Below, piece by piece: positions 2,784-45,213 of a stretch of DNA of 64,000 nucleotides (position 1 is its first letter; the number at the start of each line of letters is the position of its first letter). The stretch lies in assembly GCA_026413805.1 (NCBI GenBank), contig JAOAKE010000002.1:3599-67598 (forward strand), written 5' to 3'. The notes under the pieces are model-generated. The model had not been told where the DNA came from, did not search any database, and was given only the letters and a program-made list of their open reading frames with translations. The position numbers were made by a program, and so were the translations under genes. Source of the stretch: Candidatus Micrarchaeota archaeon. GTDB lineage: Archaea; Micrarchaeota; Micrarchaeia; Anstonellales; Anstonellaceae.

Positions 2784-3086
2784 TTATGGGTGCAGTGCAT
2801 TTTTCATTTTGACAACAAAAATATTTGCTTCCATCTCATCTGTGATTTTTTCAATCCACGAGTCAAGATATCTGTAAGGTGTTGGAAAATCCCTTTTTAT
2901 TTTTTCTACTTCTTCCTTGAACGCCTTTAAGATTCTTTCCTTCCCTTCAACAGTTCTTGCAGAAAAAAACTTTTTTTGGAGGCCATTGACTCTTGCCTCA
3001 ATTTGCAAGTATGTTGGCGAAATCAGCACCGCATCACAGCGTTTCCGTGCCTCTTTTGCTTTCATATCACATCCCCCGCCTTTCAT
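2784..3086 (-). CDS. hypothetical small protein (100 aa), last gene of the minus-strand cluster
   Basis: ORF overlaps the 3' end of the 1389-aa gene by 20 nt. It is charged and lysine-rich. Confidence 0.4.
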   Translation of the reverse strand: MKGGGCDMKAKEARKRCDAVLISPTYLQIEARVNGLQKKFFSARTVEGKERILKAFKEEVEKIKRDFPTPYRYLDSWIEKITDEMEANIFVVKMKNALHP

Positions 3087-6000: not shown

Positions 6001-7236
6001 GCCCAAAAGGCCCCCACTTACAAGCAGGTTAGTGACATCATCAGGGCTCAATCCATATTTTTCAGCATTCAGTGATAGGTAAGTGCCGCTTGTCCCAACC
6101 TCAATCAGGAGGAACTTGCCAGCTAATGAACTGATGCCCATGCCTGCCTTTCCAACTGCAGCAAGAGCCGCGCCGCTAGATTCGATGGCAGACATGCCAG
6201 CGGTTTGCCCTATAAAACTAAGCATTCTGCCAGCAGCTTTGACATAAGCAAAAAATGGGGCTGCCATGGTAGCCGCCATAAGAGCCCCATGGACCTTGTC
6301 CTCCCAGCTGCTCTCTTTTTTGAAAGAGTCCATTACATCCTTTCCAAAATAAAGATAGCCTGCAAGCTGGGTTGGGGGGTAGGCTAATGCAGCCACTGCA
6401 AGCAGAGTCGGAGCCGCGGTCACAAGAGGCTCTGCAGCATGATATACCTTGTCGCCGATGCCTTTGGCTTCCCTTACTTTTTTTCGATATAGGAAGCTTG
6501 AAAGCTGTTTTTGCTCAAATTGCAAATAAGCATTGTTGAATCTTTCAAGTGATTTGCGGTAATTTGCAACCTCTTCGGCAAATCTTGCGTTGCTGCTCCA
6601 CCTAATTTGTGGAAGATTGGACGGGAGGAGGGAAGCATATTCTCTTTCAAGCTGCTTATTCGTGCTGCTGATGTACTCCATCTTGCCATTTATTTTATCT
6701 TGCATGCTGTAGAGGTTGAAGAGTTTTGAATACGCAAGGTAAGTGTTGGCATCTCTCAGGACGTTAAACCTGCTTTGGCAGTCAGGCATCTTGCCAAACT
6801 GGGCTCCCCACAATATGTAAGGAGTAAAGCGGCTGAGCAAATAGCTTGCAAGGGCATTGGCCGCCTTGGCAAATTCTTCAGGATCTTTGAGCGCTTTTGA
6901 TACTCTTTCCAATCTTTTTATGGTCAGCTCAACTTCGGAATATTGCTTTTCAAATGTTGACAACTGCAAGCTGTTCAATACTGCTTTGGCGTTGGCGTAG
7001 CCCATCCTCTCAAGCAAAGCAACCTGCTCTTCTGCGCTTTTCGCCTCATTTATAAGACCTATTAGCTCCCTTTCGCATTTTTTTGCAAGAAGCAGCTTGT
7101 CCCACGCCCCCTTGAATGTAGGGTCAAATAAATGCTCTTCTCTCACTTCTCTTTCTTCAGGGGGCTCTCTTCTGCCTACAACCTTGACCTCAACCTCCTT
7201 AGAGAATGACTGGAATAAAAGCACCATGGGGTGCAC
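3067..7236 (-). CDS. giant hypothetical protein (1389 aa), no recognisable domain
   Basis: Uninterrupted 4.17-kb ORF. There is an internal hydrophobic/Ala-Gly-rich stretch (PFFAYVKAAGRMLSFIGQTAGMSAIESSGAALAAVGKAGMGISSLAGKF). It sits immediately downstream of the beta-helix/vWA/MoxR genes with small intergenic gaps. Confidence 0.65.
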   Translation of the reverse strand: MHPMVLLFQSFSKEVEVKVVGRREPPEEREVREEHLFDPTFKGAWDKLLLAKKCERELIGLINEAKSAEEQVALLERMGYANAKAVLNSLQLSTFEKQYSEVELTIKRLERVSKALKDPEEFAKAANALASYLLSRFTPYILWGAQFGKMPDCQSRFNVLRDANTYLAYSKLFNLYSMQDKINGKMEYISSTNKQLEREYASLLPSNLPQIRWSSNARFAEEVANYRKSLERFNNAYLQFEQKQLSSFLYRKKVREAKGIGDKVYHAAEPLVTAAPTLLAVAALAYPPTQLAGYLYFGKDVMDSFKKESSWEDKVHGALMAATMAAPFFAYVKAAGRMLSFIGQTAGMSAIESSGAALAAVGKAGMGISSLAGKFLLIEVGTSGTYLSLNAEKYGLSPDDVTNLLVSGGLLGLPRIVSKGVTGLKIKPGEVTGKPRLSPAQEKYAKAMDEKGAQVMMKSFFDFFLNRLEESSKRGEEPALVEEIGKLIKGAEEMSKESREKFLRELYYAALEKSSPQVLDHIKSEMIKRGYESIISSAQPIKERRPEIVEAPDSRPRIKEDWEYAAETVERIALGRNQEIARLAKGVFEKNKNNLSLVSLVDEVCFSFLEDGRVIEILDILGNEGVVAALSKHSNSIAGMIAKELVQLYLKAFPSTPFEEIKSRCLRSVDLLGKMTIEELVLFLPQISTKTPDELLELTGKRKRFLNLLDEWMGGNKKTYFELEGMLTLSGHEVRDWVDVGLKKKLFEAAKKEPHLLRLIRKLAEGGYPFTQSDLMEIRSIRSGRDVGWRLKMEVAKTELSIAKENPNIGEDALNEIWSTFPTKNKLILRLCNVDGGKRLDELILTSRPELIAVEWITNAIAKKIAERRTALDYYYPYIEEIARFDLDNGTTFAAEFLKNKALPIEVPFTIYERLKAKGLAYLELKEAIKLIEKNIEKELVGQTKEKHDGALIARLSLMRSVAQYSKRFQTRPVVELQKDYFSEEMTWEMNSARQKLEEAMGKSDPASIKEAMDGYIKSICSYMRKVLNKFETEEKMKKIDEMERDLLEASSIITKSEKNMAPLREEYAGLAADLLAPSRITGDLALISIILKNVLKNAKTTGDMGHLLSNIQNIMLPQMLFAYDLKKQVERNSVVCTNVQSAEYKELIPHLRKVRGDHPFCVTENNGNLYINGSDHSFTYNINILRRAAHFEVSYYVSDCLGTRDAEEVPWAKPLTKKFVVGEARIGFNDPFVETMAEIIRAMPTERTYYNKDSRQTVDRVLGVPLAVADAPTKWIGDVMMDVKAFVEEGKPPQHQIGSEAAIWMVKAANAEKEFREAYFSGDYALLEAKVDGVFGEGFFKKACSFEKPGEALAYITKAIEERRMEFEVDPDNLIKEIERIMYERRGM

Positions 7237-7318
7237 CTAATACAGATAGTTAGCCCCCGCACATTATTATTTCTTCTTCTATTTCCCTGCGCACCTAAAA
7301 GGAGCATGCCGTTTTGGC

Positions 7319-8260
7319 TTACCTAAAGATTATCTCGCCGCTTAATTTTTTATATCCAGTATAATGGCGGCTTTTCCCTCCTAAAAATATCGTTGCTCCT
7401 TGCAGTTCAAAGCCAGTGTAGTCTCGCACATCCCCAAATACGTGGATTTTGCCTCCGCTTGCGCGATAGCCCGTATAGTCCATTGCGTTTTTCAGCACAA
7501 AGATTTCCCCTCCTTTCATTTCGCACCCTACCCAGTTCCTTGCGTTCCCAACGACATTTAGCACCCCGCCCTCCATTTTTTCACCGCCGAAGTCCAGCAC
7601 GTCTCCAATGACGCTCACTTGCCCGCCAACCATCTGCGAGCCAGTGAAATTCCCACAGCTTCCTTCAACTACGAACCTTCCACAGACCATGCCCTTTGCG
7701 CTGTAGTCTCCTAAGTTGCCTTTGACCACGACATCCTTTTTGTTCCGGCATCCAAGGTAATTTATCCTCACATCAAGATGCCTCAAGCTTATTATGAACT
7801 CGTCGTCTTTGCAAGCGTTGATTAAATCCGAAAGGAATAGGCCCGCCCTATCGCTAAAATTCTTTTCGTGCTGGTATTTCCTCAGCAGCAAGACAAACTC
7901 GGCTATGTCAGCAGCTCCATAACCAGTGCGCGCTATGCTCTCGAGCAGGAGTTGGGCATGGGTTTTTGGCATGTGGTCTTTGCGTGGCACAGCCGTATAG
8001 TGGAAAGTGGAAAACAGGTCAGCAAAAAAGTCAGATGCAAATCCTTTCATCGGGGATTCAGCAGGGGCATAGTAGTCTTTCAGCTGCATTACTTTCAAGA
8101 ACGCCCTTTCCATCTCCCCTGCCTTTAAGCTATTTGTAGAAATGCCTTTGGCTTCTTCTAAGATTGGCGGCTGTGGGACAAACTTTCCAAGGAGCAAGCG
8201 CCCATTCCCATCTGGCAATAATTGCATTCTCCCATTCAAGTTCTTCTTAAATGACTGCAC
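7319..8260 (-). CDS. GXGXG-motif beta-helix protein (glutamate synthase C-terminal domain / FwdC-like fold) with unique N-terminal domain
   Basis: The C-terminal 150 aa show repeated G-x-G-x-x-G/V turns (GDYSAKGMVCGRFVVEGSCGNFTGSQMVGGQVSVIGDVLDFGGEKMEGGVLNVVGNARNWVGCEMKGGEIFV...). This is characteristic of the GXGXG right-handed beta-helix. Confidence 0.6.
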   Translation of the reverse strand: MQSFKKNLNGRMQLLPDGNGRLLLGKFVPQPPILEEAKGISTNSLKAGEMERAFLKVMQLKDYYAPAESPMKGFASDFFADLFSTFHYTAVPRKDHMPKTHAQLLLESIARTGYGAADIAEFVLLLRKYQHEKNFSDRAGLFLSDLINACKDDEFIISLRHLDVRINYLGCRNKKDVVVKGNLGDYSAKGMVCGRFVVEGSCGNFTGSQMVGGQVSVIGDVLDFGGEKMEGGVLNVVGNARNWVGCEMKGGEIFVLKNAMDYTGYRASGGKIHVFGDVRDYTGFELQGATIFLGGKSRHYTGYKKLSGEIIFR

Positions 8261-8269
8261 TTTCTCATC

Positions 8270-10174
8270 CTACCGTTTCCCCTTTGCAAGCTGCTGCCTC
8301 ATCCCTTTTTCTGCCTCTTGAATGATTATCCTTGCGCCTTCTGAAATGTCCTTGACAGAGTGATAGACCGTCAGCTTTCCAGAAGTTTCAATCCCCACCT
8401 CCCATGCAGGGGCGCTTGTTATGACCGCTACGCTGTTGGCTTCCTTTAGCTCTTCAAGCAGCTCAAGCATCTTGCGCTTGTTGTGAATTTTCATGTCGCT
8501 TACCAAATACACATGCAGGTCCTTCTCAGAGAAGTTTTCTGAAAGCCCGTTGCCTATTGCAGCCTCTTGCGCATGCTTTTTTGCAAACACCACATTCTCC
8601 AAAAGGCTTTGCAAATTGCCGCTGTTAAATGGGGCCTCTAATCGGGCCTGCATCCCAGAATTCTTTTTGAGCATCAGCCGCCCCATTGCAGTGTCTATCA
8701 AAGTGCCACCGCCCTGATACGCCAATATTGCGGCGCAGGCAAGGCGAAGGTCACAGGTGTATGGCAGGCAGTATGTTTTAGAGCCGAAGTTGATTACTCC
8801 TACTTTGCCGCCAAGCTGGATGGTCGTTTTGGCAATTCCAACCGCAATTGCAGCAAGCACAGAAGTTGACTTCTCAGGGTCGCCCATAGTCAGGCTGGCA
8901 TCCTGTATTATCAGGGAATTTTCAGGGGCATAATCAGTCTTGCGGAAAACCCTTGGGGCCTCGCCAACCATCATGGTGATGCCGGGCAAAACCTTTCCGC
9001 CAGAAGTCTCTGGCAAGGCCCTTTCCATCGGGTTGCCAAGGAAGAACCTATCAGTTCCGCTCATTCTTTTTTGCTCCGCGAGAATCTCTTTGGCGGGCTT
9101 GCCAGCCACTGCAGGATAGTTTTCAATAAGCTTCAAGTAATATTCAACAGTCTGCCTCTTTACCCAAAGCCCACCGCCAGAAGTCCCTGCGCCAAGGAAA
9201 GGGTTCATGAGCTCGCCTTTGCCTTCTCCCCCTTCAATTTCAATCCCTGCCCTTTTTGTTATCCTTTCAAGTTCCTCTTTTGAGGCAAAAGGCGCAATTT
9301 TTGAGAGGGCAATGTCAATGTCTGCGCGCCTGGCCTTTCGTATCATCTCGGTTGCGTCGCTGTCAATAGGTTCCATCTTTCCTTCATAGGCCTCTCCCAA
9401 GGAAAATCTGCCCTTGCCGATTCCAAATGACCTTGAAAAGTAACGCTCTCCCCAGAAGTTTCGCATCACCTCTAAGAACACCACTGCTGCATTTTCAAGT
9501 GCCCTAGGCTCAAACGGGGCATTCTTAAAGTCAATGCAAAATAGCCTTTCCAAGAAAGGCGCATGCTCTTTTTCAGAGGCTCCAGTTTCCCCCGCTTGCT
9601 TTTCAAGATAAGCAAGAATGAGGCTTGCAAACTCATCCTTGCTTGCTATTGCCTCTGCTTTGCGGAGGCATAAGACAAACCTGCTTCTTTGAGGGCAAAT
9701 GGCATTGTTTGCATCGTTTATCAAGCGCGAGAGCTTGCGGAAGGCAGCCTCTGCAAAGGCGATGCCATGCGAGTCCCCAGCATTCTCGTGTATATAGTGC
9801 TGCAAAAGCATGATATTTTGGTAGTTCCTTGGAAAGTTCATATACGATCCAATCACCCCTGTCATCATGCCAGCAAGCACTAAGTCAAGGTCAATGCCGC
9901 TGTTTTGGGAGAGGCGGAATGCAAATGCAGGGTCAATATATGGCCTGCCCGAGGCAAAGTCAAAGTGCATCCCACTGAAAGGAAAAGGGGGCTTTTCAAG
10001 CGCAGGATCTTTTATGACTGGAAGGTGGAATGTTGCCCTGCATTCCTCCCAAATCTTCAATGCCTTTTCCTTTGGGACAAGGGTTGCTTGCTCCAGCAGG
10101 GGTTCACTTTCAGTCTTGCCAGCCTTTCTATTTGTTTTGGAATATTGGGCAAGGAGGCTCCTGTTGCGCAGCAT
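8270..10174 (-). CDS. von Willebrand factor A (vWA) domain protein with long N-terminal region
   Basis: The C-terminal ~200 aa carry a MIDAS-like DxSxT motif (IQDASLTMGD). The hydrophobic core is typical of vWA (VLAAIAVGIA...VGVINFGSKTY...YQGGGT). It lies 11 nt downstream of the MoxR ATPase gene. Confidence 0.65.
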   Translation of the reverse strand: MLRNRSLLAQYSKTNRKAGKTESEPLLEQATLVPKEKALKIWEECRATFHLPVIKDPALEKPPFPFSGMHFDFASGRPYIDPAFAFRLSQNSGIDLDLVLAGMMTGVIGSYMNFPRNYQNIMLLQHYIHENAGDSHGIAFAEAAFRKLSRLINDANNAICPQRSRFVLCLRKAEAIASKDEFASLILAYLEKQAGETGASEKEHAPFLERLFCIDFKNAPFEPRALENAAVVFLEVMRNFWGERYFSRSFGIGKGRFSLGEAYEGKMEPIDSDATEMIRKARRADIDIALSKIAPFASKEELERITKRAGIEIEGGEGKGELMNPFLGAGTSGGGLWVKRQTVEYYLKLIENYPAVAGKPAKEILAEQKRMSGTDRFFLGNPMERALPETSGGKVLPGITMMVGEAPRVFRKTDYAPENSLIIQDASLTMGDPEKSTSVLAAIAVGIAKTTIQLGGKVGVINFGSKTYCLPYTCDLRLACAAILAYQGGGTLIDTAMGRLMLKKNSGMQARLEAPFNSGNLQSLLENVVFAKKHAQEAAIGNGLSENFSEKDLHVYLVSDMKIHNKRKMLELLEELKEANSVAVITSAPAWEVGIETSGKLTVYHSVKDISEGARIIIQEAEKGMRQQLAKGKR

Positions 10175-10185
10175 CTCATCTACCC

Positions 10186-11658
10186 TTACATTGGCAGGCT
10201 GTCCTCCATTATCTTCCCGTAGAATTCAGCTATTTTGACCTCGTTTTGAACCCTTCGTATTATTGCCTTGGCGGCAGGATGGTCGTAGTCTGACTCTCTC
10301 AGCGACTTTATCCTTTCTATGTCCCCACTTTCTTCAGCCTCCGATATTGCTGCAAGCAGCTTCTTGAGGGACGGAGCGGCCTTGTGGTAGTTTTCAAATA
10401 GCCTGTCTGCAAGCCTTTCTGCAAGATAAATGGGTAATGCATCTTTTCTCGCGTCGTTAATGTGCTTTTGCTTGAATTCCTCGGAAAATTCCATCTTATG
10501 CGCGAGGGCGTGCGGCAAAATATTGCGGATGTCCTTTGTATCTACATGGTCTCTGCCAGCAAGCCACGCCAGGCCTTTTGCATAGAAAACAACGTCATGA
10601 GAGCGGACGCTGAAGTTGTCCTTTACAAGAATGCCAACGTAGTTTCGGTCATGGGCGTCAGTGCTTATCCCATCCTCTGCCCTTTTCACCCCATATTTTT
10701 CAGACCAGTTTATTTCAGCCTCAAGGGCAGATATTATCAGCTGCGGGTCGTTTATTGCAATCTTCCCGTTATTCCCTTCTTTTACATATGCAAGGGGGAT
10801 GGCCTCGATTTCCCTAACAGCTTCTCTTCGCTCATCATCAGTCAGGGGCTCTACTGATTTTAGCAGGTTTGCCCTGTCGGAAATAAATCGCTTGAACTCC
10901 CCTACTGGGTCCTGCCTTGAATCATCAACCAATATCTGAAGCGCCTTTTCTGAAATTTGTGGATTGGAAAGGCGCATTGCAACAAGCTTCTCAGCGTTTT
11001 CGTAGCTCAAGCAGGCGATTGAGTTGTCCATTCCCGAGTATTTGGCTTCAAGCACAAGGGAGAAGCGGTCTTTCAGCTCCCTGGTCAGGGCAAGGGACCC
11101 ATCTTCCCCAAAATTCGCAGTTGCATTAGTCGGCCTGTTTCCAATGTGTTTGCTATAGAATGAGTATTCAGCCACTCCATACTCTATCATCTTGTAAAAG
11201 AGCACTTGGTCTTCTTTTGGCAGCTGTGCTATTTCATCTATGTTCAGCACAGGCACTGCGATTGCGCCTCCCCACACTACCCTCTCCTTCCCATCTTTGT
11301 TCATGCTGCCAAAGTGCAGCCTTGCAAACATTGTCTCTGGCCGCTGGTGGGGATGCCCATTAATCATGGTCGCTTCAAAAATCTCTATCGGTATCCCGGT
11401 GTATAGCGAAGAAAAAACGAGCATCTCACGGGTTTTCCCAGTTCCCCTTCCGCCAACAGAGATTATCGCATCCCCCCTTAGGAAGCTCAGGGCTCTAAGA
11501 GAGGAGTTTAGCGGAAGCGGGATTTTTTCATCAATCTTGTCAGTCAGCGGCTCTGCGGGATGCAGGGCCATGCCATGCACTATCTTTCGGATTACCTTCT
11601 CCCTTACCTTGCTATTTTGTGTATTTTGTGTTTGCTGTGGCTTTTCGGCGCATTGCAT
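10186..11658 (-). CDS. MoxR-family AAA+ ATPase (CbbQ/NorQ/GvpN-like)
   Basis: Walker A GGRGTGKT, Walker B-like VLNIDEI and an arginine-rich sensor region are present. The layout is the classic MoxR-vWA gene pair. Confidence 0.7.
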   Translation of the reverse strand: MQCAEKPQQTQNTQNSKVREKVIRKIVHGMALHPAEPLTDKIDEKIPLPLNSSLRALSFLRGDAIISVGGRGTGKTREMLVFSSLYTGIPIEIFEATMINGHPHQRPETMFARLHFGSMNKDGKERVVWGGAIAVPVLNIDEIAQLPKEDQVLFYKMIEYGVAEYSFYSKHIGNRPTNATANFGEDGSLALTRELKDRFSLVLEAKYSGMDNSIACLSYENAEKLVAMRLSNPQISEKALQILVDDSRQDPVGEFKRFISDRANLLKSVEPLTDDERREAVREIEAIPLAYVKEGNNGKIAINDPQLIISALEAEINWSEKYGVKRAEDGISTDAHDRNYVGILVKDNFSVRSHDVVFYAKGLAWLAGRDHVDTKDIRNILPHALAHKMEFSEEFKQKHINDARKDALPIYLAERLADRLFENYHKAAPSLKKLLAAISEAEESGDIERIKSLRESDYDHPAAKAIIRRVQNEVKIAEFYGKIMEDSLPM

Positions 11659-11717
11659 ACGACCTATCCCCCACCTTAGTTTTCACTAAGCGCTAATCAT
11701 CTTGCGCCCCTTGCAGC

Positions 11718-12437
11718 TTACTCTTTCTCTTGCCCTTTTCCTTCTGATGGCTGTTTTCCAAGGACTGCATTGACAGCGTGCTTTACTTCAAGGACTGCCC
11801 ACTTAACCGCGGCATTTCCAAAGGCAGCCACGCTTGCAAGTGATGCCCCTACTGCCAAGGGAGCTGCGGGCGAGCCCGAAACAATGGTCGCTACTGCTGC
11901 TGTGCCAGTGGCAACCACCGCGGCCCCGGACAGGGGCAGCACCTTCTTTTTCATAGAGCCTATGGCATTCCTGCTTTCATCGTTTAGTTTCCCCACAACA
12001 GCGGCGATGGGCGCAGCTTCAAATTTTTCTCCCAAGACGTCCTTTGCCATCCAAACCGCGTCTGATGCTTTCAGCAAATTATCTGTTTTTTTAAGCGGGC
12101 CCGAACCCCCTGCCCTGTTAACGACAAAATCGGCGCTTTCAATGAGTGCCAGTCCAAACTCCTTGCGCACCCTTTCAAACCTCTCCATTTCGTGGCGCAT
12201 CATCTTGTTTTGCTCATGCCCTTGCGAGGCAGGGAGCCCACCCATCACCATAAGGGATACGTCCCTCTCTTTTTTGTATTTAGCCCATTTTATAGCCACG
12301 TCTTTTTCCATCTGTGCTGGAAGATTCAGGCTGGCTAAAAACCTCTTCATCTCCTTGTCCTTCATCATTGCTGGATTTGGCTTGGCATTTGCTAACCTCA
12401 TATTATCTAACCTCCCTGGTGCCTTTTTTCTTTTCAT
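11718..12437 (-). CDS. hypothetical protein with Ala/Gly-rich C-terminal segment, first gene of the minus-strand cluster
   Basis: 239-aa ORF 59 nt upstream of the MoxR gene. The C-terminus LSGAAVVATGTAAVATIVSGSPAAPLAVGASLASVAAFG is a possible membrane or fibrous segment. Confidence 0.45.
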   Translation of the reverse strand: MKRKKAPGRLDNMRLANAKPNPAMMKDKEMKRFLASLNLPAQMEKDVAIKWAKYKKERDVSLMVMGGLPASQGHEQNKMMRHEMERFERVRKEFGLALIESADFVVNRAGGSGPLKKTDNLLKASDAVWMAKDVLGEKFEAAPIAAVVGKLNDESRNAIGSMKKKVLPLSGAAVVATGTAAVATIVSGSPAAPLAVGASLASVAAFGNAAVKWAVLEVKHAVNAVLGKQPSEGKGQEKE

Positions 12438-25737: not shown

Positions 25738-25846
25738 TAAAAGACCGACTAATAATAAGCATACAAACTTATTTAAACTATAACTGGAAGAAATTTAATT
25801 TGTGCTGTTGGCAGCACAAATAGGAGAAATATACGGGGTTGGTGCT

Positions 25847-28765
25847 ATGGATAGGCGAATCATTTATGTCTTTTTGTTTGCTTTGTTTTCTGGGGCAATT
25901 TTTGCGTCAGACCCTTCTTTTGTAAGTGTTCAATCAGGCAGGTTTATGCTCAATAACCAACCGTTCTATTTCTCAGGCACCAACGCCTATTATCTAGTGA
26001 CTTATGAGAAACTTGACCCCGCATACGTCACCAACACACTTAATCTCTTTGCGAATAACAACGTGACTGTTGTAAGGATGTGGGGCTTCTTTGACGGCTA
26101 TCCAAAATCAAAGTGCAGTAACTATAGTGGCGCGTCCGACCCCTCGCTTCAGCCACTTCCCGGAGTTTATAATGAATCCGCCCTCCGCTTGATGGACTCA
26201 GTCGTAAAAAAGGCAAAAGACCGCAACATCAAACTTATAATCTCATTTGTGAATTTCTGGGGAGACTTGGGAGGAATCTGCCAATATAACCAATGGGCAA
26301 ATTATTCCGGCAGCTACCAACCCACCCATGATGAAGCAGTTTTCTTCTTTACCAACCCGACTACCAAGCAGTGGTATAAGAACTATGTTTCCATGATTTT
26401 AAACAGGGTGAATACCCAAACAGGAGTGGCATACAAAGATGAGCCTACTATAATGGCATGGGAGCTGATAAATGAAGGAAGGATTCCCCAAGAAAGTGAC
26501 ATCACAATCATTCGTAATTGGTATCAAGAGATGGCGCAGCACATAAAATCAATTGACAACAAGCACCTTGTTACTACTGGTGAAGAAGGATTTGAAAATG
26601 CCATGGACTACTCCGGCTCGCCATACAGCCGCAATCTTTCCAATACCTATGTCCTTCGTGCAGGGCAGGGCACAAGTTACATTGCCAACATACAAATCCC
26701 AGAAATTGACTTTGGGCAAATACACGTCTATCCCGATGCATTCGGCTTTTCCACGGCCAACAATTATTCTGCATGGTTCCCTGACTCGGTCACCTACATC
26801 AATGACCATGCAAGAATTACCCAGCAATACGGAAAACCCATGCTTATTGGAGAATACGGCTCAAGCTATGTTGAAGGGTGGGTCGAAGATTCATTATTCA
26901 AAAGGAATTTCTACTCTTATATCTGGGCCAACAACGAACAAAATCCAAATGTGGCAGGAGACCTGCACTGGCAATTTGTTATCGGTCCCAAGTGCACTGA
27001 ATACGGAGGCAACATATGTGCTACCCGCGACCCCATTCTTACCTCGATGTTCAACCAGCATGGCTACAACATGAAGATGAAGTCAGGAGGAACAACTCCA
27101 TCAGACACCACCCCGCCAACAGTTTCAATTACCCATTCACCTGCCAACCCAACCTCCACTCAAAATATCACCCTCACAGCAACTGCTTCTGATGCATCAG
27201 GAATAAAGCAAATCCAGATTTACCTAGATGGGGCGCTTGCCAAGACATGCACCTCAGCTACCTCCTGCACCCATATTGCAGGCCCATTTGCAGCAAACAC
27301 TGTGCACACCTACTATGCAACAGCCACTGATAACTCTGCCAATGCCAACACTGGCAGAGACCCAGCCTCTGGAACAAAGAACTTCACAATATCCCAAGCA
27401 GCCCAGCAAGACACCACCCCGCCAACAGTTTCAATTACCTCCCCAGCAAATGGCAGCACAGTAAATGGCACCATTACAATAACTGCAACTGCCTCTGACA
27501 ATGTAGCAGTTGCAGGGGTGCAGTTCAAGGTGGATGGGGCCAACCTTGGCTCAGAGGACACCACTGCGCCTTACTCAGTTGTGTGGAATTCCTCTTCAGT
27601 TTCACCAGGCCAGCACACAATATCAGCAGTGGCAAGGGACACCAGCAACAACACTGCCACTGCCACAATAGTGGTTAATGTAGCAGCAGAGGTCCCACCG
27701 GCAGACACCACCCCGCCAACAGTTTCAGTTTCCCACTCGCCTGCCAACCCAACAAGCCTAGACAGGGTTACTGTTACTGCAGAAGCCTATGATGCAAGCG
27801 GCATAGCTTACATCACCATAATGGTCGATAACAAGACCGCGGCAAACTGCACCACAAGCCCATGCAAGACAACCGCTGCTCGCTATGCGATAGGCACTCA
27901 CACCTACTCTGCAATTGCAGTTGATAAATCCAGCAATGCCAACAAAGGCTATTCTGCAGTCAAATCATTTGTCGTTGTTAAGAAGGGCACCAAGCCCACC
28001 ACTACTATACAAAGCACAGCTGCACTTGACGCAGCCAGCTCAATTACCTATACACGCGAGGTTTCAGGAGACGAGGAGACCACTACCGTGGCTCTCAGTG
28101 TAACCAACCCAACGGACACTGAGATGAAAAATGTCCTGCTAAAGGAAAAGATTCCCGCTGCCTTTGCCACAGACCCAACCAAGATATCCTTCAGCCAGAA
28201 GCCTTCCTACTTCGAGTCAGGCTCGATAGTCGCAGTTTGGGAGTTTGCAAAAATCAAGCCAAAGGAAAAAATCAGCATCACTTACAGCGTGGCGCGCGAG
28301 GCTTCGGTTAAGGCAAGCGACTTCAAGCTCTCAGCAGCATTTAAGGCGCCACCTGAGCCTGGCAAGGAAGCGGCCCTTTCTGTGCCCGCATCAGTTTCAG
28401 CCCCTGAAAAAGTCGTAATCGGAAAGGAAGTCTCAGTGCAGCTGACAGATGCAGCTGGCAAGCCCCTCAAGAACGTGCTGGTGTCAATAAAAGGACCTGA
28501 GGGAGAAACAGTCGATTACATGACTGACCAGCAAGGCACCCTGCGGTTCACTCCAGAGGTAAGTGGCAAATATTATTACCTCTCCAAGGAAGCGAAGCTT
28601 TCAGCCCCAGCAGCTACCGAGGTCCTTGTAGAGCCAGAAGAGAAAAAGCCAGCCGCCATTCTCTCCAAGGAGACATCTGACAACATAGGGCTGCTGATAG
28701 CTCTCTTCCTTGTGGTTATTGCGGGCGCGGTACTCTACCTCTCCACTCGCAAGAAAGGGAATTGA
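25847..28765 (+). CDS. cell-surface glycoside hydrolase family 5 (endo-beta-mannanase-like) with three Ig-like (Big-type) repeats and a C-terminal TM anchor
   Basis: Signal peptide MDRRIIYVFLFALFSGAIFA. GH5 hallmarks VVRMWGFFDG and WELINEGR (the NEP-like acid/base region) are present. Three ~100-aa repeats each begin TTPPTVS(I/V)(T/S)HSPANPTS. The C-terminal anchor is IGLLIALFLVVIAGAVLYLSTRKKGN. Confidence 0.7.
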   Translation: MDRRIIYVFLFALFSGAIFASDPSFVSVQSGRFMLNNQPFYFSGTNAYYLVTYEKLDPAYVTNTLNLFANNNVTVVRMWGFFDGYPKSKCSNYSGASDPSLQPLPGVYNESALRLMDSVVKKAKDRNIKLIISFVNFWGDLGGICQYNQWANYSGSYQPTHDEAVFFFTNPTTKQWYKNYVSMILNRVNTQTGVAYKDEPTIMAWELINEGRIPQESDITIIRNWYQEMAQHIKSIDNKHLVTTGEEGFENAMDYSGSPYSRNLSNTYVLRAGQGTSYIANIQIPEIDFGQIHVYPDAFGFSTANNYSAWFPDSVTYINDHARITQQYGKPMLIGEYGSSYVEGWVEDSLFKRNFYSYIWANNEQNPNVAGDLHWQFVIGPKCTEYGGNICATRDPILTSMFNQHGYNMKMKSGGTTPSDTTPPTVSITHSPANPTSTQNITLTATASDASGIKQIQIYLDGALAKTCTSATSCTHIAGPFAANTVHTYYATATDNSANANTGRDPASGTKNFTISQAAQQDTTPPTVSITSPANGSTVNGTITITATASDNVAVAGVQFKVDGANLGSEDTTAPYSVVWNSSSVSPGQHTISAVARDTSNNTATATIVVNVAAEVPPADTTPPTVSVSHSPANPTSLDRVTVTAEAYDASGIAYITIMVDNKTAANCTTSPCKTTAARYAIGTHTYSAIAVDKSSNANKGYSAVKSFVVVKKGTKPTTTIQSTAALDAASSITYTREVSGDEETTTVALSVTNPTDTEMKNVLLKEKIPAAFATDPTKISFSQKPSYFESGSIVAVWEFAKIKPKEKISITYSVAREASVKASDFKLSAAFKAPPEPGKEAALSVPASVSAPEKVVIGKEVSVQLTDAAGKPLKNVLVSIKGPEGETVDYMTDQQGTLRFTPEVSGKYYYLSKEAKLSAPAATEVLVEPEEKKPAAILSKETSDNIGLLIALFLVVIAGAVLYLSTRKKGN

Positions 28766-41062: not shown

Positions 41063-41509
41063 ATGGCAAGACTAAAAAAGCGAAACCGGAAGTTTTTAGG
41101 AAGCCGAAGCCACGGCAAAGGCAACGCCAAAAACAGGCGTGGAAAGGGCAATAAGGGCGGCTGGGGCAGGGCAGGGATGCACAAGCACCGCTATTCCTAC
41201 ATTACTGCCTATGAGCCTGATTTCTTCGGAGTCCATGGGTTTGTCCCTCCTAAAAAGCAAAAGCCAAAATGCATCAACTTGTGGCAAATTGACAGATATG
41301 CCGCCTTGGGCAAGCTACAAAAAAAGGACGGCAAGGATTACTTTGAGTTTAGCGGGAAAGTGCTTGGGACAGGAAGCATAAACCACCCAGTTATAATAAA
41401 AGCACTTTCTTTCTCAAGGGGGGCAGAAGAGAAAATAAGGGCAGCTGGAGGAAGGGCAGAGAAGCTTTCTTCCAGCGAGAAAGGCCTCAACACAATGGAA
41501 AAGAATTAA
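41063..41509 (+). CDS. rpl15: ribosomal protein L15
   Basis: L15 family (Gly/Arg-rich N-terminus). Confidence 0.9.
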   Translation: MARLKKRNRKFLGSRSHGKGNAKNRRGKGNKGGWGRAGMHKHRYSYITAYEPDFFGVHGFVPPKKQKPKCINLWQIDRYAALGKLQKKDGKDYFEFSGKVLGTGSINHPVIIKALSFSRGAEEKIRAAGGRAEKLSSSEKGLNTMEKN

Positions 41510-41517
41510 AATTTATG

Positions 41518-41527
41518 CTATAAAATA
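41518..41527 (+). promoter_or_regulatory. TATA-like box (CTATAAAATA) immediately upstream of the small membrane-protein gene
   Basis: An AT-rich box lies ~21 nt before the ATG. AAGGTGGT lies directly before the ATG. Confidence 0.3.
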
Positions 41528-41547
41528 TTTGTAAAAGGTGGTAATAA

Positions 41548-41907
41548 ATGCTAAATAGAAAAATAGCCATTTTGTCAGTTGCACTGCTGATGCTGGTTGC
41601 ATTGGCAAGTGCCCAGCGCAGCGGGCTTTCTGCGCTGGAGAACGCCATCAGGACATTATGCAGCAGCCTAAATGCCCTGCTTCCAGTAGTGGCAATGCTG
41701 ATGGTCTTGGTGGCAGGAGTAATATATGCTGCTGGGCAGATAATGGGTGCTGAAACCCGTGCAAGGGCAAATGTCTGGGCAACTGCTGCCCTGACAGGCG
41801 CACTAATAGCCCTTCTTATCTACTCTATCGCCCCGCAGATACTCTTCCAGCTTTATAACACAGGCAGTGCCACCAGCACAGACTGGATAAACCAATACTG
41901 CAGATAA
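41548..41907 (+). CDS. small secreted double-TM protein (119 aa), VirB2/TrbC-pilin-like architecture
   Basis: Signal peptide MLNRKIAILSVALLMLVALASA. Two hydrophobic helices (LLPVVAMLMVLVAGVIYAAG and AALTGALIALLIYSIAPQILF) are separated by a short polar loop. It is inserted between rpl15 and secY. Confidence 0.45.
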   Translation: MLNRKIAILSVALLMLVALASAQRSGLSALENAIRTLCSSLNALLPVVAMLMVLVAGVIYAAGQIMGAETRARANVWATAALTGALIALLIYSIAPQILFQLYNTGSATSTDWINQYCR

Positions 41908-41995
41908 ACCAATACTGCACTGCAACCGTTCCATAAAGCCTTCTTTTTTTGTTTTTCTTTTTCAGGCTTGCCTTATTTGAGTTCCCCAAAGCTAA

Positions 41996-42009
41996 TTATA
42001 TATAAATAT
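41996..42009 (+). promoter_or_regulatory. TATA-like element (TTATATATAAATAT) upstream of secY
   Basis: AT-rich box about 40 nt before the secY ATG. Confidence 0.3.
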
Positions 42010-42046
42010 TTTCACCATAAGCAGTGCGAGTTTAACTGCTGATTTT

Positions 42047-43555
42047 ATGGGCTCGCTTGATTTCATCCAGCCTGTTATGCGCTTTTTGCCAGAGGTTGCA
42101 CCGCCTTCTAGACCACCTACCCTTTCAGAAAAGCTGATGTGGACTTCTCTGGCGCTTGGAATATTTTTTGTCATGTACAATGTAGTGGCTGTCGGGGTGG
42201 AGCAGCACGCTGCAGGAATGGACTTTTTGCAGGTGGTGACTGCCAGCCGCATAGGCTCTCTGATTACTGTTGGAATCGGTCCAATTGTGCTTGCAAGCAT
42301 TTTCTTGCAGCTTTTTGCTGGAGCGAAGATAATTAACGTGGACATGTCCAATCCAGAAGAAAAGCGCAAGTTCCAAGCTACGCAGAAGCTTCTTGCCATA
42401 CTGCTTTGCTTTTTAGAGGCCACAATATTTGTGGTATTTGCGAGGGTGGCACTGATGCCCCTTTTCCCCGGAGAGGGCTATACCACAAACCTAGACGGTT
42501 CGCAAAGCCTTCATGCCCCACTTACCATGGCTATAGTGATATTCCAAATAGCCCTTGGCTCGCTCATTCTTCTTTATCTTGACGAAGTGGTTTCAAAGCA
42601 CGGAATAGGCAGCGGCATTTCCCTTTTCATCGCTGCCGGTGTCTCCATGGCAATAGTTGGAGGCACAATTGCGCTTTTTACAGGCCCTGGCGGGGTAATC
42701 GAAGCCCTTTCCTCTGGAAGCTCAGAGGCTCTTCCAAATGCCATTCTTGCCCTTCTCCCACTTTTCTTTACAATTGCAGTCTTCTTGGTAGTTTCGTATG
42801 CAGAAGGAATAAAAGTGGAAATACCTCTTGCATTTGACCGAGCGCGCGGGTTTGGAAGCCGGTTTCCAATAAAGCTTTTGTATGTCTCAAACATCCCAGT
42901 CATACTTGCCTCTGCCCTTCTTATGAACCTTCATCTTTTTGCAGTTGGCCTGCAAGACAAGCACCTCTGCATTACAGGGGAGTTTGACCCTACAAGCCAG
43001 GAGCTTAACAAGTGCAAAGGAGGAATAGACTTAGTGCAGCTGATAGCATTTGTTGATTCCAGCCATCAGATAAGGGATGGAGCGCTTTATTTGATATCGC
43101 CCATCTATCGCCCGCTGCAAGGAAACTACGGCGCTTACTTTAACCACATAATTTCAGGCCAAACCCCGGTATATGGCTTGCCAGAGTGGCTTCACGTAAT
43201 CGTGTATATTCTCTTCATGATGGGGCTTTGCATTCTTTTTGGCCAGTTCTGGATTGAGACCACGGGAATGAACGCGCAGGAAGTGGCAAAGCAGCTGGAC
43301 AAGTCTGGGCTTCAAATTCCAGGATTTCGCCGCGACCCGAGAGTAGTAGAAAAAAAGCTCAACGACTATATACCTTACATTACAGTAATCGGCAGCGCAT
43401 TTGTCGGCCTGCTTGCAGCACTTGCAGACATGTCAGGGGCGCTTGGCAGCGGGACAGGAATACTCCTGACAGTGGGCATCCTTTATAGGATGTACCAAGA
43501 CCTCGAGAACCAGCGGCTCTTTGAATCATATTCCCTCCTGAGCAAATTTGCATGA
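42047..43555 (+). CDS. secY: preprotein translocase subunit SecY
   Basis: 10-TM SecY family, in the conserved position after rpl15. Confidence 0.92.
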   Translation: MGSLDFIQPVMRFLPEVAPPSRPPTLSEKLMWTSLALGIFFVMYNVVAVGVEQHAAGMDFLQVVTASRIGSLITVGIGPIVLASIFLQLFAGAKIINVDMSNPEEKRKFQATQKLLAILLCFLEATIFVVFARVALMPLFPGEGYTTNLDGSQSLHAPLTMAIVIFQIALGSLILLYLDEVVSKHGIGSGISLFIAAGVSMAIVGGTIALFTGPGGVIEALSSGSSEALPNAILALLPLFFTIAVFLVVSYAEGIKVEIPLAFDRARGFGSRFPIKLLYVSNIPVILASALLMNLHLFAVGLQDKHLCITGEFDPTSQELNKCKGGIDLVQLIAFVDSSHQIRDGALYLISPIYRPLQGNYGAYFNHIISGQTPVYGLPEWLHVIVYILFMMGLCILFGQFWIETTGMNAQEVAKQLDKSGLQIPGFRRDPRVVEKKLNDYIPYITVIGSAFVGLLAALADMSGALGSGTGILLTVGILYRMYQDLENQRLFESYSLLSKFA

Positions 43556-43571: not shown

Positions 43572-44123
43572 ATGGCGATTACCATTGTTATGGGCGTCCC
43601 AGGCGCAGGAAAATCCACTGTCCTTGAAGCCATCAAAAGCAACCCCAAATGCAGGCTCGTAAATTATGGAGACCTGATGTTTGAAATAGCCGCAAAAGAA
43701 AAGTTGGCTTCTCATCGCGATGAGCTTAGGAGGCTTTCCCCTGGCAAGCAGCTTGAGCTGCAATCAAAAGTTGCTTCAGCCCTTTCTAAAATGGGCGGGA
43801 AGGTCGTCCTTGACACCCACTGCTCAATCGCCACTCCAAAAGGCTACCTCCCCGGCCTGCCATTTCATGTCATATCGCAGCTGAAAGTGGAACAGCTCAT
43901 TCTGATTGTAGCCCCAGTTGAAGAGATAATCGCAAGGCGCAAGAATGACACCTCGCGCCAGAGAGACTATGACAGCATCTCCTCTCTTAAGGCCCATGAA
44001 GAGTGGAACAAATTCCTGCTTGCCACTTATTCAGCCCTCTGCGGGGCACCTGCAAAAATAATTGTAAATTCAAACGGCAAGCTCAAAGAGGCGCAAGAAG
44101 AGCTCCTTTCCACTCTTGGTTAG
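43572..44123 (+). CDS. adkA: adenylate kinase, archaeal type
   Basis: P-loop GVPGAGKST. Conserved secY-adk order. Start chosen at MAITIVMG... Confidence 0.82.
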   Translation: MAITIVMGVPGAGKSTVLEAIKSNPKCRLVNYGDLMFEIAAKEKLASHRDELRRLSPGKQLELQSKVASALSKMGGKVVLDTHCSIATPKGYLPGLPFHVISQLKVEQLILIVAPVEEIIARRKNDTSRQRDYDSISSLKAHEEWNKFLLATYSALCGAPAKIIVNSNGKLKEAQEELLSTLG

Positions 44124-44133
44124 CGGTGCAGAA

Positions 44134-45213
44134 ATGATTTTTGATTTGTCAAATTTCTGGATATTTGTCCTAATCGTTGCTTCGCTTTATTTGCTAATCT
44201 TGAATTTTGTGCAGGATAGGCTTGGCTGGAAGTCTCGCCTCCAATCTCTTCAAAAAGAGATGGCTGAAAACCAAAAAAAGATGATTGAGGCTGCAAAGGC
44301 CAGGCGGGATGAAGAATACCAGCAGTGCACTGAGAAATACAACAAGCAAACGATTGAACTTATGAAGCTTCAGCTTAAGCTGACTGCCCTTTTCCTTGCC
44401 CTTTACTATCCTATAACTGCCATTATCTTTCCGGCATTTGAGCCAGGGTTTGGCGACGATGTTCACCTAAGGCTTTATGATGATGGGCTCGGGGCGCACT
44501 GCGACTTAGCGGCAGGAGACGGCATTTTTTCAGTATGCTATTCCCTGCCGCAGCAAGCAACGAAAGGAGCATGGGTAATAGACGGCTACCTAAACAGCAG
44601 CAGCGATTTTCTTGCAAGAGAAGGGACAGCAATCTATGTTGAGGAGGGCAAAAAAGAGGACGTTTGGCTCCAGTCGCTATCTGCAAAAGGCCCTTTGGAC
44701 TTTGCATTTGGAAAGGAGGCATATTCACTTTACATCTCAACAGACAAGGAGAAATATGCGGCAGGCGAGCAGGTCCAGATAGTTGCAATCCCGCAAAAAC
44801 AGGTTGCCTCGTGCGGCAAGACTCTCAGCGAAATAGTGCGCGCTTTCAGGCAAAAGGGGGCTGAACTTTCTGAAAAGGAAATAGGCGAAGTTGCAAACTT
44901 CACCCTCTCTTCGTCTGATTGGAAGCCTCTTTCAATAGGCAACAAAAGCTATTTTCTAAAAAGGCACCCCACTTTATTCGGAGAAGAGGCCCTAATTTTT
45001 GAGCCAGCGCTTCCTTCCAACCCCGCGGTTGAAGCAGTCCTCAACTCCGGCACCTTTTTCCACATTGACCTTCCCTTTGCGCTACCTTTATTAAACATCC
45101 GCCGCATAATCGGCTCTACCGGCGTATTCATATTCTTTGTCTTCGTGATAGGGCTGGGGTATAGCATTGCAAGCTCAGCCTACAAAAAATTCATGAAGAG
45201 CAGGGGTGCATAA
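44134..45213 (+). CDS. DUF106/EMC3/Oxa1-superfamily membrane insertase-like protein with a ~200-aa inserted extracytoplasmic domain and extra C-terminal TM
   Basis: TM1, then the coiled-coil LQSLQKEMAENQKKMIEAAKARRDEEYQQ...ELMKLQLK, then TM2 (LTALFLALYYPITAIIFPAF). This matches archaeal DUF106, which conventionally follows adk. The protein is 365 aa versus the usual ~200. Confidence 0.5.
   Translation: MIFDLSNFWIFVLIVASLYLLILNFVQDRLGWKSRLQSLQKEMAENQKKMIEAAKARRDEEYQQCTEKYNKQTIELMKLQLKLTALFLALYYPITAIIFPAFEPGFGDDVHLRLYDDGLGAHCDLAAGDGIFSVCYSLPQQATKGAWVIDGYLNSSSDFLAREGTAIYVEEGKKEDVWLQSLSAKGPLDFAFGKEAYSLYISTDKEKYAAGEQVQIVAIPQKQVASCGKTLSEIVRAFRQKGAELSEKEIGEVANFTLSSSDWKPLSIGNKSYFLKRHPTLFGEEALIFEPALPSNPAVEAVLNSGTFFHIDLPFALPLLNIRRIIGSTGVFIFFVFVIGLGYSIASSAYKKFMKSRGA

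Follow-up and report, generated by a model that had tools for sequence, protein, structure and literature searches.

A VirB2/TrbC-like family of small membrane proteins in Micrarchaeota, with one paralogue between the L15 and secY genes

Introduction

TrwL, VirB2 and TrbC are the pilins of bacterial conjugative type IV secretion systems (T4SSs) of mating-pair formation class T (MPF_T; Pfam PF04956, PDB entry 8s6h). They are proteins of about 100 to 120 amino acids (aa). A cleavable signal peptide ending in a small-x-small/Q site is followed by an N-terminal helix, a first transmembrane segment (TM1) with a conserved proline, a short charged turn and a second transmembrane segment (TM2). Pili of the VirB2 type usually contain protein and lipid at a 1:1 ratio. 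Here we describe an archaeal gene whose product has the same predicted layout. It lies at 41548..41907 on the plus strand of a 64-kb stretch of contig JAOAKE010000002.1, from a metagenome-assembled genome (MAG) of a Candidatus Micrarchaeota archaeon. We call this whole stretch the window. The gene sits between those for ribosomal protein L15 and SecY.

The Micrarchaeota proteins differ from TrwL, VirB2 and TrbC in several respects. Their host is an archaeon of the DPANN group, and no virB3, virB4 or virB6 gene adjoins them, whereas virB3 directly follows trwL. Their TM1–loop–TM2 core is nearly invariant among the members examined, and their genes are chromosomal, present in multiple copies and placed in housekeeping loci. 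Two conserved cysteines suggest a disulfide staple instead of the peptide cyclisation seen in the bacterial proteins.

Two other described systems are close. In Patescibacteria (candidate phyla radiation, CPR), small variable VirB2-like genes form tandem arrays (PMC12102498). Like Micrarchaeota, these bacteria are ultrasmall hosts with reduced genomes, and many are host-dependent. The arrays hold 2 to 11 genes there and 1 to 7 in Micrarchaeota, and both sets match the same Pfam models, PF04956 and PF18895. Members of the bacterial arrays average 25% identity, whereas the Micrarchaeota cores are about 90% identical. In 1135 of 1948 Patescibacteria assemblies virB4 is found close to the pilin gene (Quinonero-Coronel et al. 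2025, PMC12102498), whereas no VirB4 was found near any Micrarchaeota copy examined. The hosts also belong to different domains of life. The second system is the pair of archaeal DNA-import machineries Ced and Ted, whose pilins CedA1 and TedC are VirB2-like hairpins (Beltran et al. 2023, PMC9905601). TedC, like the window protein, has a predicted signal peptidase I (SPase I) site, AVA/QA. Ced and Ted pilins form lipid-containing tubes from a single membrane, and we propose the same mechanism for Micrarchaeota. Their genes adjoin those for the VirB6-like CedA/TedA and VirB4-like CedB/TedB (PMC9905601), in contrast to the Micrarchaeota copies, which lack such neighbours. Their hosts are Sulfolobales and Thermoproteales, not DPANN.

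We lean towards the view that the window gene is a functional paralogue of a multi-copy VirB2/TrbC-like family of Micrarchaeota, which landed with its own expression signals in the rearrangement-prone L15|secY junction. The family is apparently undescribed. Full-text literature searches returned no paper linking Micrarchaeota with VirB2, T4SSs or this pilin type. The Micrarchaeota comparative-genomics papers searched mention type IV pili at most, and neither VirB2-like proteins nor conjugative-type pili. What is new here is a VirB2-like family in DPANN with a hyper-conserved core, paired cysteines, no linked T4SS, and adhesin-tailed and multi-repeat forms. A single paralogue between L15 and secY is a modest finding; the greater interest lies in its family.

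A likely distant relationship to VirB2/TrbC pilins

TrwL, VirB2 and TrbC give the best sequence-level match to the window protein in Pfam, NCBIfam and PDB. Against Pfam TrbC (PF04956) the protein scores 24.6 bits (E = 2.9e-5), which is under the curated gathering cut-off of 27.9. Three further models are matched: Pfam T4SS_pilin (PF18895; E = 0.0031, 18.0 bits, cut-off 26.6), NCBIfam TrwL (NF033899; E = 0.0019, 18.6 bits, cut-off 100) and Pfam DUF4134 (E = 0.019). The same two pilin models return when 49 family members are searched at E ≤ 1e-3, TrbC in 21 of the 49 (best 1.4e-6) and T4SS_pilin in 14 (best 9.6e-7). Among 24,736 Pfam models only these two recur, all other matches being confined to one member each. 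Some relatives carry a precomputed PF04956 match.

A family profile searched against 177,635 PDB sequences returned the R388 pilin TrwL (8s6h) at the top, with E = 0.043. This alignment begins at residue 2 of the mature pilin. A profile–profile comparison by hhalign, with four plasmid TrwL/VirB2 genes as the reference, gave 72% probability (P = 3.3e-5) and 31% identity over 55 columns. It placed the ASA/Q site of the family on the AAA/Q cleavage site of the pilins, and aligned the N-terminal helix, the TM1 proline and a G-x-x-Y-A motif. A search with a 48-aa TrwL fragment gave no candidates for this reference set.

Several results weigh against a pilin relationship. Besides the sub-threshold TrbC score, the PDB profile search contained no CedA1, TedC, VirB2 or TraA at E ≤ 10. 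Foldseek searches of PDB with full-length and mature models had a best E of 2.5, with no pilin and nothing significant, in a method that discriminates poorly among simple helical hairpins. Hydrophobic two-helix proteins are, moreover, prone to spurious profile matches. The resemblance to VirB2 could then be convergent or compositional, and the gene would encode an unrelated secreted protein specific to Micrarchaeota with two transmembrane segments, for example one with a role in envelope or S-layer anchoring or in stress. Such an origin would fit the sub-threshold or marginal standing of all the matches, the limited hhalign coverage (only the end of the signal peptide, the N-terminal helix, TM1 and the loop), the non-discriminating fold search and the outcome of a tblastn search with the mature protein, which found nothing at E ≤ 1 among 72,556 PLSDB plasmids. 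It leaves unexplained why, of all Pfam models, two VirB2-type pilin families alone recur, and why the top PDB match is a pilin in register with the mature N-terminus. We regard convergence as improbable.

Distant homology to VirB2/TrbC is thus the likely reading of these profile comparisons, and we claim no formal family membership. An initial sequence-only reading had proposed a VirB2/TrbC-like pilin. The architecture, the recurrent TrbC and T4SS_pilin matches and the TrwL hit agree with that proposal, while the score of the window protein stays under the Pfam cut-off and the fold search returned no pilin. Taken together, the results support the proposal in part.

A near-invariant core between variable ends

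The protein divides into four regions, all encoded on the plus strand. Conservation is given below as mean column identity per region in a 49-sequence family alignment. The predicted Sec signal peptide (aa 1–22, 41548..41613) consists of MLNRK, a hydrophobic core and the ASA/Q site, with a column identity of 0.39. It is followed by the variable N-terminal helix of the mature protein (aa 23–43, 41614..41676; 0.49), which holds Cys38. The near-invariant core (aa 44–99, 41677..41844) comprises TM1 (aa 44–62; 0.87) with the invariant Pro46, the loop or turn GQIMGAETRARANVW (aa 63–76) and TM2 (aa 77–99; 0.86). The loop is the most conserved part at 0.96, and GAETRARANVWAT is almost entirely invariant across the alignment. 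A variable C-terminal tail (aa 100–119, 41845..41904; 0.34) carries Cys118. The window protein retains all 28 invariant residues of the alignment.

A signal-peptide pattern is present in all 49 sequences, with a K/R-containing n-region, a hydrophobic core of 12 to 16 residues and small residues at -3 and -1. The call uses a simple -3/-1 heuristic, and the cleavage site is a predicted one. AlphaFold2 modelled helices at residues 3–21, 26–65 and 68–103, with a mean predicted local distance difference test (pLDDT) score of 81.7. The two helices after the signal peptide form a long predicted hairpin (mean pLDDT 81–82 over the models made). The model thus predicts a signal peptide, a transmembrane segment, a 2-residue turn and a second transmembrane segment. 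This agrees with the architecture of signal peptide, two transmembrane segments and short loop that had been read from the sequence at the outset.

Cys38 and Cys118 are both invariant in the alignment (Cys38 in 49/49). Among 125 distinct copies from the fetched loci, 124 contain both a cysteine in the N-terminal helix and one in the tail, and the tail cysteine count is odd in 118. From these two counts we infer that the N-helix cysteine pairs with a tail cysteine. Divergence is concentrated outside the core. Within arrays the cores of paralogues are 90% identical, and the 20 residues before the core are 47% identical. Between loci, codon identity at conserved residues is only 43%, a sign of purifying selection on the core and not of recent copying. 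The sequences thus indicate a core under purifying selection while the exposed parts diversify.

The tail also bears on topology. In long relatives (342–1276 aa) the domain stands at the N-terminus, and the tail has grown into a Cys/Gly-rich ectodomain of up to about 1,150 residues. The C-terminus would therefore be extracytoplasmic. By the positive-inside rule, the Arg-rich turn would then lie on the cytoplasmic side for as long as the protein remains in the membrane.

Six long members (P0199, P0209, P0126, P0197, P0210 and P0213; 429–1276 aa) join an N-terminal pilin-like domain to an ectodomain rich in Cys, Gly, Ala and Asn. One of them, P0210, ends in a Gly_rich_2 domain. Genes for long members at loci L163 and L164 adjoin other giant surface proteins (Laminin_G_3).

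A multi-copy family native to Micrarchaeota

The window protein is 100% identical to P0001, which is NCBI N3G22_00800, annotated as 'hypothetical protein'. At least 848 homologues were found at E ≤ 0.01 in a collection of 5.8 billion proteins. A HMMER search of 1.84 billion representatives with the family profile returned 411 clusters at 50% identity, 303 of them at E ≤ 1e-10. Given the 848 homologues and the retention of every invariant residue, this is not a chance open reading frame (ORF). It is a real, conserved gene.

A motif scan of one genome per GTDB species gave 134 encoding sites, of which 80 were kept, forming 77 loci. Nearly all of these are labelled Micrarchaeota, Micrarchaeia, Anstonellaceae or Bilamarchaeaceae, and a few only 'archaeon'. 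Because its search patterns were conserved peptides of the family itself, the scan demonstrates presence in Micrarchaeota and not absence elsewhere.

Copies are single or form co-directional tandem arrays of up to seven. Across 81 loci, 52 hold one copy, 16 two, six three, five four, one five and one seven, so that arrays of 2 to 7 copies occur in 29. Several family loci occur per genome in genomes of about 1 Mb. The window copy is solitary, and its MAG encodes at least one further paralogue (N3G22_03685). Family neighbours are syntenic housekeeping genes. In 17 loci (L001, L079 and 15 others) a PAC2-family gene, similar to proteasome assembly chaperones, lies directly 3' of the array. An Fe/Mn superoxide dismutase gene often comes next, confirmed by Pfam in L001. 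The PAC2 locus looks like the ancestral home of the family. In L082 the Pfam-annotated context is eRF1 and a Yip1-like protein. The window gene is a paralogue of a family native to Micrarchaeota and not a one-off insertion of foreign DNA.

The eRF1 gene of L082 (227–2845) contains an intein with a LAGLIDADG homing-endonuclease domain, according to precomputed Pfam matches.

A proposed pilus subunit and a membrane-anchor alternative

We propose the following pathway for the protein. A Sec signal peptide would target the precursor to the membrane, and SPase I would cut after ASA22, as sequence rules and the alignment with the TrwL site suggest. In the modelled topology the mature protein of about 97 aa would form a helical hairpin in the membrane that exposes its two ends outside and keeps the Arg-rich GAETRARANVW turn in the cytoplasm. 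A Cys38–Cys118 disulfide may staple the two exposed ends together. Such a staple would do for this protein what head-to-tail cyclisation does for TrbC, VirB2 and TrhA. If the F, T, R388, Ced and Ted pili are taken as models, subunits would next leave the membrane and assemble, probably together with lipid, into a conjugative-type tube or a surface fibre. The invariant loop would face the lumen of such a fibre, and its outside would consist of the variable ends or adhesin tails. Variety in that outer surface would come from the tandem arrays and the adhesin-tailed variants.

The family assignment and topology appear reasonably well supported by the sequences. Filament formation and its purpose, whether host contact or transfer of DNA or other material, are hypotheses modelled on the known pili. 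The conservation pattern, with the loop at 0.96 and the transmembrane segments at 0.86–0.87 against 0.49 for the N-terminal helix and 0.34 for the tail, is expected of a pilus subunit. The tandem arrays, the ectodomains fused to the tail and the comparable VirB2 arrays of episymbiotic Patescibacteria (PMC12102498) also fit a pilus.

Linked secretion genes were searched for at three scales. The 64-kb window yielded no VirB4-, VirB6- or coupling-protein-like gene, nor did the conserved neighbours within 6 kb at 81 loci or the Pfam-annotated contexts of seven family loci. Further T4SS components, which might have been expected from the pilin proposal, were found neither in the window nor around any copy examined. 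A screen for Walker A motifs in ORFs of at least 400 aa, covering 1.2 Mb of family loci and followed by Pfam, NCBIfam and PDB searches, yielded housekeeping AAA+ proteins and GTPases, and generic T2SSE ATPases in 5 of the 81 loci. The T2SSE ATPases were considered as a linked system and set aside. They belong to the generic ArlI/PilB/VirB11 superfamily, and their frequency was judged, not calculated, to be possible by chance.

These results count against a pilus, and the missing assembly machinery near any copy weakens the polymerisation step in particular. A near-invariant loop would also be expected of a cytoplasmic docking site in a membrane protein that forms no filament, and both the disulfide and the cleavage site are predictions. 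The VirB2-like hairpin may instead stay permanently in the membrane, as an anchor or scaffold for surface proteins or as a subunit of a membrane complex. A conserved partner in the cytoplasm would then bind its invariant loop, with the short forms serving as 'anchor-only' paralogues. The long relatives already use the domain as an N-terminal anchor for Cys/Gly-rich ectodomains, and at locus L169 it occurs C-terminally and as four tandem repeats in one protein. The conservation maximum in the loop fits an anchor as well, as does the lack, around the copies examined, of a VirB6-like gene or an ATPase dedicated to assembly. Beltran et al. (2023, PMC9905601) propose that the ancestors of conjugative pilins were bona fide membrane proteins, relatives of VirB6/CedA. 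A membrane anchor thus explains the fused forms and the invariant loop as well as a pilus does. It leaves unexplained the strong diversification of the exposed ends within arrays, and the upkeep of one to seven near-identical cores per locus, at several loci, in genomes of about 1 Mb. The similarity is, in addition, to pilins including their processed N-terminus and not to VirB6. We consider a permanent membrane role less likely than a pilus, but it is the main alternative.

A pilus-forming family would have wider implications. The broad form of the idea is that Micrarchaeota keep a phylum-wide, multi-copy set of disulfide-stapled VirB2-type pilins, which form lipid-containing tubes or fibres without a linked canonical T4SS, and whose surface-variable paralogues and adhesin-tailed variants serve contact or exchange with other cells. 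We put it forward as speculation that is more doubtful than probable. If true, the VirB2 arrays of episymbiotic Patescibacteria would have an archaeal parallel in this family. If tubes do form, they would be conjugative-type pili in Archaea beyond Sulfolobales and Thermoproteales, possibly without a linked VirB4. The molecular basis of DPANN attachment to partner cells and exchange with them is largely unknown, and this family may be among the few structural candidates for the cell surface that are common to Micrarchaeota. As a tube-forming family it would offer a concrete target for cryo-electron tomography, proteomics and genetics in Micrarchaeota co-cultures.

Two observations from the screened loci are recorded here. 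The T2SSE (ArlI/PilB/TadA/VirB11) ATPases lie 4–5 kb from pilin-like genes (L010, 2100–3464; L063, 14846–17383; and three similar loci). The L063-type ATPase is unusually long at 845 aa, with an N-terminal extension of about 300 aa that has no Pfam match. Locus L169 (GCA_027310085.1, DAIDBN010000002.1, 10001–21899) holds a divergent cluster of pilin-like multi-domain proteins. Four tandem pilin-like hairpin domains are found in a 632-aa protein. Next come three proteins with a signal peptide, an ectodomain and C-terminal transmembrane segments, one of them (668 aa) a match to the pilin-like profile. After these lie a 137-aa pilin-like protein and four co-directional polytopic membrane proteins (243, 433, 410 and more than 342 aa). 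None of the cluster proteins has a Pfam match or a Walker A motif. Checked as a possible VirB6-containing apparatus, the cluster gave no Pfam matches and no homologues in the other loci. It may be an uncharacterised membrane apparatus.

A lineage-specific arrival at the L15|secY junction

The 119-aa ORF starts with ATG and occupies the interval between the two neighbouring genes, as first described. Its 5' neighbour is the gene for L15 (uL15; 41063..41509, +; Pfam Ribosomal_L27A, 1.3e-10), and its 3' neighbour is secY (42047..43555, +; Pfam SecY, 6.5e-69). The L15 of the window is 51–73% identical to L15 of related metagenome contigs.

We fetched 80 metagenome loci by means of the window L15 and read the junction in those with downstream sequence. 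Adjacency of L15 and secY, at first taken to be nearly universal, proved variable in Micrarchaeota. In L090 secY begins 2 nucleotides (nt) after the L15 stop, and in L089 and L095 it follows after a spacer of 100–130 nt. The closest relative, L087 (L15 66% and SecY 74% identical), has a different insert of about 1 kb at the junction, with a 220-aa glycosyltransferase-like ORF and a 97-aa membrane ORF. No secY was found within 4 kb downstream of L15 in L083, L088, L099 and L101; in L083 and L088 unrelated genes follow L15. Conversely, L15, L30, secY, adk or the EMC3-like gene occurs in none of the 81 other family loci. Since secY directly follows L15 in L089, L090 and L095 and none of these family loci lies there, the position is derived. 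The insertion is unique to this genome and is conserved in relatives neither at other family loci nor at their L15 loci. The pilin-like gene is thus a lineage-specific newcomer at this junction, which is a breakpoint in the phylum. This position is of lesser importance than the family. It marks the junction as a rearrangement site in the phylum and places one paralogue in a probably highly expressed region.

The surroundings of the insert show no target-site duplication, no meaningful terminal inverted repeats and no flanking repeats. No phage, integrase or antitoxin genes were found around the gene, the GC content of the insert is unremarkable, and there are no Rfam matches at the insert. These observations bear on whether the gene encodes a holin-like protein or small membrane toxin carried by a mobile insertion, a possibility raised at the outset. 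A small protein with two transmembrane segments at an atypical position, with its own promoter, would suit such an element, and the window protein has a single match to a PHROG holin family (E = 0.021). The match is restricted to the window protein, as three homologues gave none. The cleavable signal peptide, the topology with both ends outside and the Cys-rich ectodomain variants are unlike holins. The context is ribosomal and Sec genes, free of phage, integrase and antitoxin genes and of repeat boundaries, and the family is phylum-wide, multi-copy, under purifying selection and settled in housekeeping loci. A holin or toxin is very improbable.

Expression signals and a 17-bp duplication

Two A/T-rich boxes, read from the sequence, precede the gene on the plus strand. 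The promoter-like TTAAAA (41506..41511) lies at -42 from the ATG and overlaps the L15 stop. The second box, CTATAAAATA (41518..41527), contains TATAAA at -29. A Shine–Dalgarno-like AAGGTGG (41535..41541, +) spans -13 to -7. This arrangement is common in the family. Among 112 distinct family upstream regions, a TATA-like hexamer occurs in 75, for the most part between -36 and -55, and a GGAGG/GGTG Shine–Dalgarno sequence starting at -8 to -13 occurs in 91. With its Shine–Dalgarno sequence at -11 and an A/T box near -42, the window copy has the usual family layout.

The 3' spacer (41908..42046) is 139 nt long with about 39% GC. It contains oligo-T runs T7/T5/T5 (41944..41962, +), a likely archaeal terminator as read from the sequence. 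Termination at oligo-T is established in archaea. An A/T-rich TATA-like element, TTATATATAAATATTTT (41997..42013, +), follows about 35 nt 5' of the secY ATG. Comparable A/T boxes precede secY in the relatives L087 and L089. The spacer of about 140 nt with a second TATA-like element was therefore correctly read. A scan for bacterial sigma-70 promoters and hairpin terminators was empty; its models are bacterial and not applicable to archaea.

The A/T boxes and the oligo-T runs are consistent with a promoter and terminator belonging to the pilin-like gene itself. Of the promoter first proposed for it, the boxes are there and are laid out as in the family; their function as a promoter is a prediction. 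The family-typical upstream layout suggests that the entire expression cassette moved into the L15|secY junction.

A perfect 17-bp tandem duplication, two copies of GATAAACCAATACTGCA, spans the stop codon of the gene (41886..41919, +; Tandem Repeats Finder score 68, 100% match). Without the second copy the C-terminus would read ...NQYCTATVP* instead of ...NQYCR*. The longer end resembles those of homologues, which have the cysteine followed by 3–6 residues. The duplication may have arisen by recent slippage, vary within the population or be an artefact of assembly.

Other genes of the window

The window covers a typical archaeal information-processing supercluster. It encodes RNA polymerase subunits, S7, elongation factor 2 (EF-2), a run of ribosomal proteins at about 29.4–41.5 kb, SecY, a putative adenylate kinase, an EMC3/TMCO1-like protein, Cbf5/TruB, S13, S2 and probably elongation factor 1α. 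The 191-aa ORF 3' of secY is labelled a putative adenylate kinase from its match to the post-secY gene of related loci, and it is followed by the EMC3/TMCO1-like gene. The order secY, adenylate kinase, EMC3/TMCO1-like gene is the usual one in archaea.

The EMC3/TMCO1-like (DUF106) protein (44116–45213, 365 aa) matches its Pfam profile over residues 12–109 only. About 200 residues with a weak MG2-domain match lie between that stretch and a C-terminal hydrophobic segment. At 3067–12437 on the minus strand is a block of large co-directional ORFs. Those of 1388, 633 and 238 aa have no Pfam matches, and they flank a 312-aa protein with a GXGXG motif and a 489-aa protein whose only match is AAA_lid_2. 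Finally, a 987-aa protein (25802–28765) that has three Big_7 Ig-like domains and weakly matches a glycosyl hydrolase is encoded between EF-2 and the ribosomal-protein cluster. Its gene is the second one of surface type to lie within the translation supercluster.

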